From positions 1 through 14,203 of the forward strand of contig CAWDRG010000016.1 in assembly GCA_963804645.1 (NCBI GenBank): 14,203 nucleotides of DNA. Reading direction: 5' to 3'. The notes under the pieces are model-generated. The model was not told where the DNA came from and did not search any database. It was given only the letters and a program-made list of their open reading frames with translations. This document shows, piece by piece, positions 1 to 3,363 of the stretch. The translations under genes and the position numbers were made by a program. The stretch's first letter is position 1, and each line of letters begins with the position of its first letter. Origin of the DNA: an uncultured Bacillota bacterium. GTDB taxonomy: Bacteria > Sysuimicrobiota > Sysuimicrobiia > Sysuimicrobiales > Segetimicrobiaceae.

Positions 1-6
1 GATAAG

Positions 7-17
7 ATGAACGAGCC
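7..17 (+). repeat. Left subterminal inverted repeat of the IS
   Basis: ATGAACGAGCC is the exact reverse complement of 1501-1511. Confidence 0.9.
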
Positions 18-84
18 GGCGACCCGCGTAATACGTGGGTTGCCACCAGGACGGAGGCCTATCCACATACGGGGGTGCCGGCTC

Positions 85-1194
85 ATGGATCAGCATAGCA
101 TAGTGGTTGGTCTGGATGTCCACAAAGGGAGCATCACGGCCGCGGTCCTGCCGCCAAACGTTGCGCGGCCTCAGGAGACGTGCACGATCGAGAACGACGC
201 GCGGGCCGTCGAGCGCTTGGTGAAACGGATCATGAAGAACGGGAATGCGGTGTTTGTGTACGAGGCGGGGCCGTGTGGATATACGCTGCACCGGCAGTTG
301 TATCGTCTGGGCTGCCAGGCGGCGGTGATCGCCCCGGGCCTGACGCCCGTGCGTCCCGGCGATCGGGTCAAAACGGATCGGCGTGACGCGGAGAACTTGG
401 CACAACTCTATCGCGCGGGGCAACTCACGGAAATTCGGGTGCCCACCGGGGAAGAGGAAGCGGCCAGAGACCTCGTCCGTGCGCGCGAAGACGCCGTGGC
501 CGACCGGCTGCGCGCCCGACATCGGCTGAGCAAATTTCTCCTTCGTCAAGGACGGCTGTACGATGGCAAGCAAGCGTGGAGTCAGAAGCATTACGCGTGG
601 CTCCGTCAGCAACGGTTTGAGTTGACGTTGGCCCAGCAGACGTTTGATGCGTATCTCCGCGGGGTCGAAGAAGCCGACGCCCGGTTGGCGAGTTTGACCA
701 CCCAGGTGCTCGAACTGGCGCAACGGCCGAGCTATGCGGCGCTTGTGCAAGGCCTGCGCTGTCTGAAAGGCGTCGACACGCTGACCGCGATCACACTGAT
801 TGTCGAAACACAGGACTTCCGGCGCTTTGGGCACGCCCGCGCGTACATGGACTTCACCGGCTTGGTGTGCTCCGAGAACAGCAGCGGAGACAGGACCCGC
901 CGCGGCTCTATTACGAAAGTCGGCAACGCGCATCTCCGCCGTGTCCTGGTCGAAGCGGCCTGGAGCTACTCGCATCACAACAGCAGCGGCGCGACGATCA
1001 CCAAACGACGCCACGGCTGTCCGGCGGCAGTGGTGCAGATCGCCCGCCGTGCGCAGGACCGGCTTCACCGCCGCTACTGGCGCCTGACCCAGCGCAATAA
1101 GCCACGGCCAGTCGCGATCGTCGCCGTCGCGCGGGAGTTGGCAGGATTCGTCTGGGCAATCGCGCATAGCGTGTCGAGCACCACCGCGGCGTAG
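85..1194 (+). CDS. IS110-family transposase/recombinase (N-terminal RuvC-like DEDD domain, C-terminal Tnp domain), 369 aa
   Basis: Motifs VGLDVHK, YEAGPCG, KTDRRDA (D-E-D-D) and C-terminal SENSSG...GSITKVGNAHLRRVLVEAAW, ending AIVAVARELAGFVWA. ATG at 85 preferred because the ATG at 7 lies inside the terminal repeat. Confidence 0.97.
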   Translation: MDQHSIVVGLDVHKGSITAAVLPPNVARPQETCTIENDARAVERLVKRIMKNGNAVFVYEAGPCGYTLHRQLYRLGCQAAVIAPGLTPVRPGDRVKTDRRDAENLAQLYRAGQLTEIRVPTGEEEAARDLVRAREDAVADRLRARHRLSKFLLRQGRLYDGKQAWSQKHYAWLRQQRFELTLAQQTFDAYLRGVEEADARLASLTTQVLELAQRPSYAALVQGLRCLKGVDTLTAITLIVETQDFRRFGHARAYMDFTGLVCSENSSGDRTRRGSITKVGNAHLRRVLVEAAWSYSHHNSSGATITKRRHGCPAAVVQIARRAQDRLHRRYWRLTQRNKPRPVAIVAVARELAGFVWAIAHSVSSTTAA

Positions 1195-1260
1195 AGTACC
1201 AGGAACAGATTCCGAGGATCGACGGACGTGTTCTGGACCTGGAGGCGAAGCAGCGGTCAG

Positions 1261-1410
1261 GAGCATCCTCGAGGGGTCTATGTGGCGGACAGGCTGACGT
1301 CTGTGCCGACCCACGTTCCTAGATTGAGGCAGCTCCCGACGAATCACAATCATGTGCGCTCTGCCCGCTTCGTGCGGGTAACCGCCGAATATCAGAGTGA
1401 TTCACCGTCG
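1261..1410 (+). ncRNA. Putative bridge RNA / seekRNA core (ends approximate)
   Basis: Hairpin 1: 1261-1270 pairs with 1326-1335 and 1281-1292 with 1301-1315, leaving a 10x10 internal loop. Hairpin 2: GAATCAC 1341-1347 pairs with GTGATTC 1397-1403 and 1362-1368 with 1374-1380. Loop sequence ATATCAGA 1389-1396 is identical to IS end 1510-1517. Confidence 0.8.
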
Positions 1411-1494
1411 CGAACGCTTCGCTTCCAGGACCCGAATACGCCGTCCATCCTCTGGGACGACGGAGGGCCGTTCGTGGCTTGACCTACACGGTAC

Positions 1495-1500
1495 TTGACA
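1495..1500 (+). promoter_or_regulatory. -35 box (TTGACA) of circle-junction promoter; partner -10 is TAAGAT at 3-8
   Basis: Consensus TTGACA next to the right IR. Joining the ends at the GA core gives TTGACA-17 nt-TAAGAT. Confidence 0.8.
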
Positions 1501-1511
1501 GGCTCGTTCAT
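1501..1511 (-). repeat. Right subterminal inverted repeat of the IS
   Basis: GGCTCGTTCAT is the exact reverse complement of 7-17. Confidence 0.9.
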
Positions 1512-1512
1512 A

Positions 1513-2106
1513 TCAGACCTCCAGCAGGTCCACCCCGTCGACCACGAACTGCGACCACGACTCGAGGCGCGGGTACGCGGCGCGGAGTTCCTCCCGGCCC
1601 GCAAACGCGCCGGCGAGTTTGGAGGTCTCGCGCACCCGGACGTCCTCCGACGGCAGATCGGCGAGGTACACCAGGCCGAAGTGGACGCGTCCCACCGCCT
1701 GGACATCGTCGTTCAGCGCGCCGATGGGCACGGCGTGCCACCCTGGGGGCAGCGCGACCTCTTCGGTGAGCTCCCGCTTCATCCCGGCGGCGACGCGGTC
1801 CCGCTCGGTGTCGCCGTCCTCCGGGTTGATGTGGCCGCCGAGACCGACCGACAGCTTGTCGCGGAGCCGCGCTTCCGATCCGCCCCGCGTGCGCTCCACG
1901 AGAAAGATCCGGTCGGCGTGGCGGAGGATGACGTATGGGATGATCTGCTTCAGGCTCGCGTCCTCCTCCACGCGGTCGCGCGGCGCGAAGAACGCGTGGG
2001 TGGCGATCGTGTCGAGGTACGCGGGCAGGCCGTCGCGCGAAAATCCATAGAACGCGCCGGAGGGAAAGAGGAGCGCGCGGGGCACCACCAGGACCTGTTC
2101 GGGCAT
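1513..2106 (-). CDS. Predicted NUDIX-family phosphoesterase (YmaB/COG4112-like), 197 aa
   Basis: EQVLVVPR, RDRVEEDASLKQIIPYV, RTRGGSEARL, SVGLGGHINPED, GMKRELTEEV, VGRVHFGLV and LESWSQ are typical of this family; ATG at 2106. Confidence 0.85.
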   Translation of the reverse strand: MPEQVLVVPRALLFPSGAFYGFSRDGLPAYLDTIATHAFFAPRDRVEEDASLKQIIPYVILRHADRIFLVERTRGGSEARLRDKLSVGLGGHINPEDGDTERDRVAAGMKRELTEEVALPPGWHAVPIGALNDDVQAVGRVHFGLVYLADLPSEDVRVRETSKLAGAFAGREELRAAYPRLESWSQFVVDGVDLLEV

Positions 2107-2153: not shown

Positions 2154-2645
2154 TCAGACGACGCGGAACGCCGCGTCCACGAGGACGTCGTCCTCGGCGT
2201 GGATCTTGCCGAGCAGGATGCCCGGGTCGGATCCAAACAGATGCGGCAGGATGAGAGGGAGATCCCCCGGGATGGGGAGCGACGCCACGTCCTCGAGCGG
2301 CACCCACCGGAGCGCGCCCTCGTCGGTCGCCGCGGGGTCCGGGTCGCCGCTCGGCCGCTCGGCGGTGAACGCGAACAGGAGCCACTGCGCGTTCGCCGTG
2401 CGGCTGATCACCGTCAGCACCGCGCGCAGACGAGCCTCAGCGAGGCGCAGGCCCGTCTCTTCGTGCACCTCGCGCAGGCAGGCGTCGTACGGGTCCTCGC
2501 CCGGCTCGATCTTCCCGCCCGGCGCGTTGTACTTCCCTTGGTTGGGCGGGTTGCGGCGGAGGAGCAGCAGCACGCGGTCGCCGTCGCGGATGAAGCACAG
2601 CGTCCGAAGATGGATCGCAGGCGGTCCGGCGCTTTCCTGGGCCAT
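2154..2645 (-). CDS. NUDIX hydrolase, MutT/8-oxo-dGTP diphosphatase-like, about 163 aa
   Basis: Canonical Nudix box GGKIEPGEDPYDACLREVHEETGL, plus TLCFIRDGDRVLLL and EGALRWVP. The start codon is uncertain. Confidence 0.88.
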   Translation of the reverse strand: MAQESAGPPAIHLRTLCFIRDGDRVLLLLRRNPPNQGKYNAPGGKIEPGEDPYDACLREVHEETGLRLAEARLRAVLTVISRTANAQWLLFAFTAERPSGDPDPAATDEGALRWVPLEDVASLPIPGDLPLILPHLFGSDPGILLGKIHAEDDVLVDAAFRVV

Positions 2646-3023: not shown

Positions 3024-3249
3024 TTACTTCTTCGGGAAGAGCAGCGTCACGATGATCTGGACTCCCCACTGGGGGGCGGTGACGGGCCGGACGGGGTAGT
3101 ACTTGACCCCGAAGGCGAGGGAAGTGAGCTGGTTCCCGAATTTGTAGACCTTGCTCACCGACGCGATCAGCGGGACCGTCCACTGAGTCTGGGTCCAGTT
3201 GTACGTGGCCTGGGTCTGGAACGTGTAGGTGAGGCTGTTCTTGAGCGTA
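3024..3249 (-). pseudogene. C-terminal fragment of an outer-membrane beta-barrel-like protein
   Basis: YNWTQTQWTVPLIASVSKVYKFGNQLTSLAFGVKYYPVRPVTAPQWGVQIIVTLLFPKK shows alternating amphipathic strands and an LLFPK end. Protein-like sequence stops at a 10-bp tandem duplication (3240-3259), and there is no room for an N-terminus. Confidence 0.65.
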
Positions 3250-3363
3250 CTTGAGCGTATAGGAGACGAACGGCTGCCCGCTCCGTTCGCCATCGGTTCA
3301 CACGCATGCGCATCCCATGGAGCGGGCTTCGGCCGCGTCGCCGCGACTCCTTGTGCTGGAGCC

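Follow-up and report, generated by a model that had tools for sequence, protein, structure and literature searches.

An IS1111-type insertion sequence that exchanges the stop codon of a NUDIX-like gene without altering its protein, and the recurrence of this exchange among its relatives

The window, a stretch of 14,203 nucleotides, is the whole of contig C16 of genome G000, and its bases 1-1516 are an insertion sequence (IS) on the plus strand, delimited by its copies, their flanks and metagenome contigs carrying the empty allele. The element is of the IS1111 type within the IS110 family. Its transposase gene occupies 85-1194 on the plus strand, the ATG at 85 being the start that aligns with the family models; the reading frame is open from an ATG at position 7 (7-1194, 395 aa). 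The product is a DEDD (RuvC-like) transposase with a Transposase_20 C-terminal domain (Pfam DEDD_Tnp_IS110, PF01548, 3.8e-18; Transposase_20, PF02371, 8.2e-20), and its residues 33-388 match the NCBIfam model NF033542, "IS110 family RNA-guided transposase", at 2.1e-70 and 237.6 bits (cut-off 140). Other hallmarks of the IS1111 group are present as well. Subterminal inverted repeats of 11 bp, ATGAACGAGCC at 7-17 (plus strand; read from the sequence and conserved in relatives) and GGCTCGTTCAT at 1501-1511 (plus strand), are flanked by extensions of 7 bases on the left (AGATAAG, core counted) and 3 on the right (ATC, 1512-1514). A non-coding region of about 320 bases (1195-1514) lies 3' of the transposase gene, and insertion is site- and orientation-specific, without target duplication beyond a shared core. 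The hexamer TTGACA (1495-1500, plus strand) just inside the right repeat is conserved in true family matches. Promoters formed at the junction of a circular intermediate are known in other IS families. In a circle of the present element, TTGACA would be followed by 17 bases and then by TAAGAT of the left end, an arrangement that probably constitutes a junction promoter; bases 1495-1516 joined to 1-12 are predicted to form a good sigma-70-like promoter facing the transposase gene. A tRNA-like contig end was also considered and found no support, ARAGORN returning zero tRNAs in the window.

A BLAST search of the genome identified five full or nearly full copies of the IS (C16, C17, C6, C19 and C21a) and a sixth, C21b, cut by a contig end. 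All five have the right end ...GGCTCGTTCATATCAGACC in common and part company after 1519-1521. At each of the five sites the left flank CTA is followed by G...IS...AG and then by ACC(C/T), and the orientation relative to this motif is always the same. Within G000 the bases repeated at both junctions are AGA, so that either AG or GA could be the core. The sequence-only reading of this DNA had opted for GA. Comparison with relatives places the core one base away: the junctions in G006 read GCT-AG-ATAGG and ATC-AG-TGTCC, other relatives likewise have only AG in common, and the empty-allele contigs match the window from 1515. The right core is therefore A1515-G1516 and the last IS-specific base is C1514, a correction that leaves the argument on the stop codon unaffected. 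Position 1 of the window is the G of the left AG; the IS-specific bases are 2-1514.

On the minus strand, a gene for a protein of 197 aa runs up to the right end of the IS. Positions 1510-1521 read ATATCAGACCTC, which on the minus strand is GAG GTC TGA. Of the TGA stop (1513-1515, minus strand), T1513 and C1514 belong to the IS and A1515 to the core; the IS thus donates two of the three bases. The observation from which the sequence-only reading started, a gene ending GAG GTC TGA with its TGA inside the IS end, is thus upheld by the sequence and by the five copies. Its naming of this gene as a NUDIX gene proved too specific. The gene (1513-2106 in its ATG-started form, minus strand), recognized from its open reading frame, its orthologues and a structure match, has no Pfam match at E<=0.001 and no NCBIfam match at E<=0.1; it scores E=0.015 and 15.7 bits against Pfam NUDIX, below the gathering score of 21.1. 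The relative with a solved structure is 3e57, "uncharacterized protein Tm1382" (E=1.4e-25), and "NUDIX-like" (TM1382 family) is the most that can be said of it. The next gene upstream in the same direction (2154-2645, minus strand) encodes a NUDIX hydrolase of 163 aa (Pfam NUDIX, E=6.9e-23).

Orthologues of the 197-aa gene were found in 37 of the 40 relatives searched. Their stop codons vary: in the 19 relatives' loci examined, TAG occurs 8 times, TGA 8 times and TAA 3 times. All five same-genus orthologues are 197 aa long and end DLL(E/D)(V/I), those of G002 and G009 terminating exactly in GAG GTC TAG. In relatives, a gene for an OGG-like 8-oxoguanine glycosylase begins 2-3 bases past this stop. 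The corresponding gene of G000 lies on another contig (C10:7-891; OGG_N and HhH-GPD domains). The first bases of contig C10, TAGCGAATG, supply the left flank that C16 lacks and fit flush against the beginning of that contig. The synteny and the flush contig ends lead us to infer that C10 and C16 are adjacent, and the start of C10, taken together with the gene order of the relatives, gives CTG GAG GTC TAG CGA ATG as the ancestral sequence. Direct evidence for this allele came from X1 and X2, coded runs labelled as peat metagenome. Contigs of empty alleles match the window from 1515 onward only. A contig from X1 joins ...CATCCGCT directly to AGACCTCC; in its record 4, ...GGTGCGGCATCCGCT runs straight into AGACCTCC, with 3 differences over 1515-1614. 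In record 13 of X2, from a more distant strain, CT is joined directly to AGACC. The occupied junction is represented too, by record 12 of X2, a 631-nt contig spanning 1492-2122 with 3 other letters. The empty allele had been predicted to read GAG GTC TAG and the insertion to be silent; the X1 contig, the G002 and G009 orthologues and the start of C10 all agree with this, and the extra codons past the final valine that would have contradicted it were not seen in the empty allele or in the same-genus orthologues. A silent exchange of TAG for TGA, leaving the protein unchanged, is thus confirmed with a direct empty allele.

Silence for the 197-aa protein does not extend to the neighbouring gene. 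The NUDIX, NUDIX-like and OGG-like genes (1513-2645 plus C10:7-891) form a same-strand cluster that is conserved in relatives. The GGAGG serving the OGG-like gene sits within the Leu-Glu-Val codons of the 197-aa gene; after insertion, the bases preceding TAGCGAATG are IS sequence devoid of a GGAGG-like motif, and the OGG-like gene is now 1.5 kb further from any upstream promoter. Loss of the Shine-Dalgarno sequence and of the promoter would be expected to reduce expression of the OGG-like gene. The IS has split what is probably a cluster for the repair of oxidised nucleotides, with the NUDIX-like gene on one side and the OGG-like gene on the other.

The choice of site appears to be dictated by a guide RNA (seekRNA or bridge RNA), which an alignment and RNAalifold consensus of 17 elements place at approximately 1228-1440 on the plus strand, in the non-coding region. 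A search of window 1-1700 against Rfam 15 returned zero matches at E<=1; a match in Rfam is not a defining feature of the IS110/IS1111 family. When the non-coding regions of four diverged elements are aligned, a conserved RNA-like block becomes apparent with one variable patch, directly before CTATGTGGCG. In the 17 elements this patch and the constant CUA are together complementary to T-AG and to the five bases that open the element's own right flank (GAGTTCTA with TAGAACTC, for example, or CCCCTGCTA with TAGCAGGG). In the window, the right-target guide is AGGGGTCTA (1272-1280, plus strand), complementary to TAG-ACCCC(T) in the target top strand and covarying with the right flank across the 17 elements. 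The left-target guide, CCTAG(AT) (1318-1324, plus strand), has the same sense as the left half-site and covaries with the left flank: in the left patch, NNYTAGAT elsewhere, L229 and L245 have GTTAG and CTTAG, and their flanks end in TTA. The RNAalifold consensus puts the two patches on opposite strands of an internal loop, facing each other. As in the IS1111 group generally, segments of the predicted RNA match both strands of the target and change with it. All 17 elements have YUAG in the left guide, and a right guide that ends in CUA and varies at its other five bases; the target defined by this covariation is Y-T-AG followed by five variable bases. All five G000 sites fit the guide, with a G.T wobble at the C/T position. 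The covariation and these five sites bear out the target that the sequence-only reading had predicted from the guide, the core assignment apart. An internal copy of the right end and core, ATATCAGA (1389-1396, plus strand), is presumed to be the donor guide; a search of the second loop for a donor guide complementary to the left end produced no clear match, the ATATCAGA copy being the only one evident.

Two of the five copies in G000 are on stop codons. Besides the C16 copy, on the GTC-TAG stop of the NUDIX-like gene, the C21a copy lies on the TAG stop of a 508-aa ORF of the other strand. This ORF ends TPLR-TAG, exactly as does its uninterrupted, 84% identical orthologue in G004; the TAG survives insertion because its T is flank and its AG is core. 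Of the other three, the C17 copy precedes the start codon (ATG) of an 824-aa LuxR/STAND regulator by 5-7 bases, the C19 copy lies between divergent genes, 86 bp ahead of one for a Zn-dehydrogenase, and the C6 copy follows a convergent ORF of 376 codons at a distance of some 65 bp. At C19, the sequence TAG-GTG-ATG was considered as a gene start and rejected, the real start of the Zn-dehydrogenase being 86 bp away and in another frame. Runs X1 and X2 contain a further insertion site of the IS, absent from the five G000 copies, in which the right flank is ACCTCC followed by CGGAGGTGACGGG.

The exchange of stop codons extends well beyond this genome. A 22-base right-end pattern retrieved 120 metagenome stretches, to which we added 19 true matches from a genome scan and locus L045 of G065. 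In that scan, performed with a 16-base pattern, about 19 of 119 stretches displayed the TTGA(C/T) context of a true IS end; the others look like chance matches. The collection yielded 86 distinct right junctions, each flanked by 300 nt or more and de-duplicated on 25 bases, so that related sites may remain among them. All family members were retrieved with a pattern containing CATATCAG, that is, with the TGA-giving end preselected, and no claim made here rests on G034 or G062, which are flagged as unpublished. On the minus strand we looked for ORFs of 100 codons or more that enter the IS, and for Pfam support at E<=1e-5. In the frame that ends NNC-TGA at the IS end, there were 20 such ORFs, 9 of them with Pfam support. 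The two other frames served as controls: the one ending two codons later contained 13 ORFs, 1 with Pfam support, and the one ending further into the IS contained 10, 0 with support. The sole match in the former is to another IS110 transposase. The nine families seen in the first frame are FKBP_C, HAD, Response_reg, AhpC/redoxin, CofD, the 2-oxoacid dehydrogenase E2 catalytic domain, TatC, ribosomal L18 and AAA_23. Several of these domain matches reach the natural C-terminus, that of ribosomal L18 covering 116/116 positions and ending at the last residue. Other insertions thus repeatedly coincide with in-frame stops (9 Pfam-supported genes at the IS TGA versus 1 and 0). At least nine different right-guide specificities are represented among elements with genes ending at the IS TGA. 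The geometry of the TGA swap recurs in G065, in G006 and in an Elusimicrobia MAG, and the known left flanks show that the stop before insertion was TAG (G006, L140, L231) or TAA (G065); for L214 and L269 no left end was found within 2.6 kb. On the left side, where the sample was small (17 distinct flanks of at least 300 nt), none of the flanks contained a credible gene of the plus strand that ends at the junction TAG. Silent exchange of the stop is thus a recurrent property of the clade and not a single event. One metagenome contig, L231, has an IS relative exactly on the stop of the ribosomal protein L18 gene, in the opposite orientation, within the expected spc operon. Either transcription must read through the IS at this place or the allele is a minority one.

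We think it probable, at roughly 60%, that RNA-guided insertion accounts for these observations and that the stop swap is a by-product of the target half-site and the IS end; the anatomy of the element, its guides, the empty allele and the recurrence are the parts of this explanation that have been demonstrated. The IS would have integrated between CT and AG of GGAGGTC-TAG-CGA-ATG, the sequence linking the NUDIX-like and OGG-like genes, its guide RNA specifying Y-T-AG on the left and five bases (here ACCYC) on the right. The CTAG half-site reads TAG on both strands. With a right end ...ATC followed by the core AG, a convergent gene ending NNC-TAG would come to end NNC-TGA, its protein unchanged, and a gene of the other strand ending at T-AG would keep its TAG. 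Given the half-site and the conserved IS end, the swap would be automatic. Recurrence in the clade could then follow from the rarity of CTAG in GC-rich genomes and its concentration at gene ends, combined with the loss of insertions that break genes. G000 has 68.6% G+C, and CTAG occurs only 1689 times in its 5.3 Mb; by an ORF and GC3 heuristic, 27% of these occurrences are in-frame stops, versus 6.3% of all TAG triplets. Of the 56 CTAGACC sites that carry no IS, 13-15 coincide with GTC-TAG stops and 8 with stops of the other strand (21/56, about 38%), a background taken from one genome with a crude heuristic that calls a plausible 5375 gene ends in 5.3 Mb and makes overlapping calls at some sites. 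The two occupied stops in five match this availability. Base composition and purifying selection, rather than selection for docking at stops, would therefore seem to explain the recurrence. What speaks against a mere by-product is that the ratio of frames at occupied sites, 9:1:0 by Pfam, is more skewed than at unoccupied sites in the same orientation, where about 13 stops compare with about 9-10 positions inside ORFs. Loss of gene-breaking insertions would itself produce a scarcity of the two control frames; the skew thus fits purifying selection, and is also compatible with a preference.

Such a preference is at the heart of an alternative that we regard as possible, if rather unlikely: that docking at stop codons has evolved, the clade keeping its Y-T-AG half-site and its ...ATC end for the reason that conversion of TAG or TAA stops of either strand to TGA spares host proteins and allows the IS to occupy junctions between genes where genomes are gene-dense. 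By extension, and just as tentatively, the variable right guide would pick the gene end, amounting to an RNA-programmed safe-harbour rule that operates even between ribosomal protein genes. The constancy of YUAG in the left guide (17/17), set against a right guide that is free apart from its terminal CUA, could reflect selection for a stop-containing site. The guide has changed to UUAG in two elements, and even there a stop (TAA) results on the other strand; the 29 distinct left flanks include 17 CTA and 3 TTA. The Pfam-supported genes, 9 versus 1 and 0, and the at least nine right-guide specificities they involve point the same way. However, C-to-U is the commonest change and the elements are related, so that 17 of 17 does not represent 17 independent events; the conservation of the TGA-giving end may reflect the selection of the sample, CATATCAG being part of the retrieval pattern; and in a related subclade that shares this right end, the left flanks (CAA, CGA, ATA, AAA, ACA) provide no stop. 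Furthermore, the proportion of G000 copies at stops is about that expected from the 38% availability, the other three copies being intergenic or 5-7 nt before a start codon, and the insertion studied here deprives the OGG-like gene of its GGAGG ribosome-binding site and promoter. The recurrence beyond one site is supported by the clade-wide 9:1:0; the host-sparing targeting strategy proposed in the sequence-only reading is not supported in the form put forward there, in view of the 2/5 versus 21/56 and of the OGG-like gene being cut off. At the opposite extreme, the IS might merely abut one stop codon, with nothing general to be learned. The sequence-only reading had a single site, and three of the five G000 copies are not at stops; yet the second stop site at C21a, the cases in G065, G006 and the Elusimicrobia MAG, and the nine Pfam-supported genes opposite near-empty control frames make coincidence very improbable. 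We attach hardly any credence to the idea that the junction or the IS copy is a repeat chimera produced by assembly at a contig end. The contig does begin exactly at the IS boundary, and among the metagenome contigs displayed none spans 1369-1422 without differences, the pieces that bridge this region (1339-1418) having 5 other letters. The right junction, on the other hand, lies 1.5 kb inside the contig and is bridged by the X2 contig covering 1492-2122.

By-product or not, the element is an ordinary member of a known family, whose target rule repeatedly puts it on stop codons. For IS1111 elements with seekRNA (ISEc11, ISKpn60 and relatives), Siddiquee et al. 2024 (PMC11187229) describe subterminal repeats of about 11-13 bp, with a left extension of 7 (or 6) bases and a right one of 3. 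The present IS resembles them, as portrayed in the main text of that article, in its DEDD transposase, its 11-bp repeats and 7/3 extensions, its long 3' non-coding region and its two short RNA-target matches, one per strand; it differs in that the target is Y-T-AG plus five variable bases, often a stop codon that the IS end rewrites, and the term "stop codon" has 0 occurrences in that main text (PMC11187229). With IS621 and its IS110-group bridge RNA, as presented by Durrant et al. 2024 (PMC11208160), it shares RNA-guided recombination around a short core common to donor and target, and guides on the two strands of an internal loop, both covering the core. In IS621, according to the same study, the RNA is in the left end, the core is CT and the natural targets are REP elements, whereas here the RNA is in the right end, the core is AG and the sites are unique CTAG sequences at gene boundaries (PMC11208160). 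The openly accessible literature, with subscription journals and bioRxiv supplements outside its scope, yielded no description of stop-codon regeneration by IS110/IS1111 elements. Conserved gene ends as such are familiar landing sites: Tn7 inserts at a safe site that lies downstream of glmS, and tRNA genes have their 3' ends restored by integrative elements. In these systems, as in ours, the gene product remains intact, but they employ dedicated target-binding proteins or a long replacement 3' end; here a difference of 2 bases suffices to swap the stop.

These properties bear on current interest in IS110/IS1111 recombinases, which are RNA-guided and under development as genome-writing tools, and whose natural targets have mostly been described as repeats (REP, attC, transposon ends). 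If the constant Y-T-AG half is a mechanistic requirement, it will represent a design constraint for reprogramming these enzymes; if it has been selected, the element illustrates in simple form how mobile DNA can encode a rule for landing with little damage. Were docking at stops real, an IS could sit inside operons without truncating any protein. Either way, an insertion that is silent for one protein can still cut an operon.

Some additional observations concern the IS copies and the window at large. The window copy is the only one in the assembly without a nested insert, and its positions 1339-1418 are bridged in the metagenomes only as the variant with 5 differences. Every other copy carries a second element of the IS110 family, about 1430-1490 bp long and on the opposite strand, inserted in the guide-RNA gene at GAATA|TCAGAG (window 1389-1391). 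It is found at C6:107740-109168, C19:114473-115901, C17:852863-854349, C21:2146-3367 and C21:1-395, and also in G004:C11. The second IS comes in three variants, 73-81% identical, inside host IS copies that are about 99.9% identical, and every G000 copy of it lies inside the first IS. This looks like an element that specifically targets the guide-RNA gene of another IS. A known family element that inserts at one fixed place within another mobile element provides a parallel to this nested arrangement, and not to the stop-codon site. Two copies also harbour, in their left end, a MITE-like insert of about 230 bp (C6:106147-106375 and C19:112865-113109), with terminal repeats CTGAATCCGGCGG and a 7-bp duplication, GTAATAC, at IS positions 28-34. 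An element of about 3 kb with the same termini occupies the same place in a third copy (C21, between 4885 and 7872). Finally, CTTGAGCGTA occurs twice in tandem at window 3240-3259, where a minus-strand ORF (3024-3293) breaks off; this may be a small duplication that has disrupted a gene.
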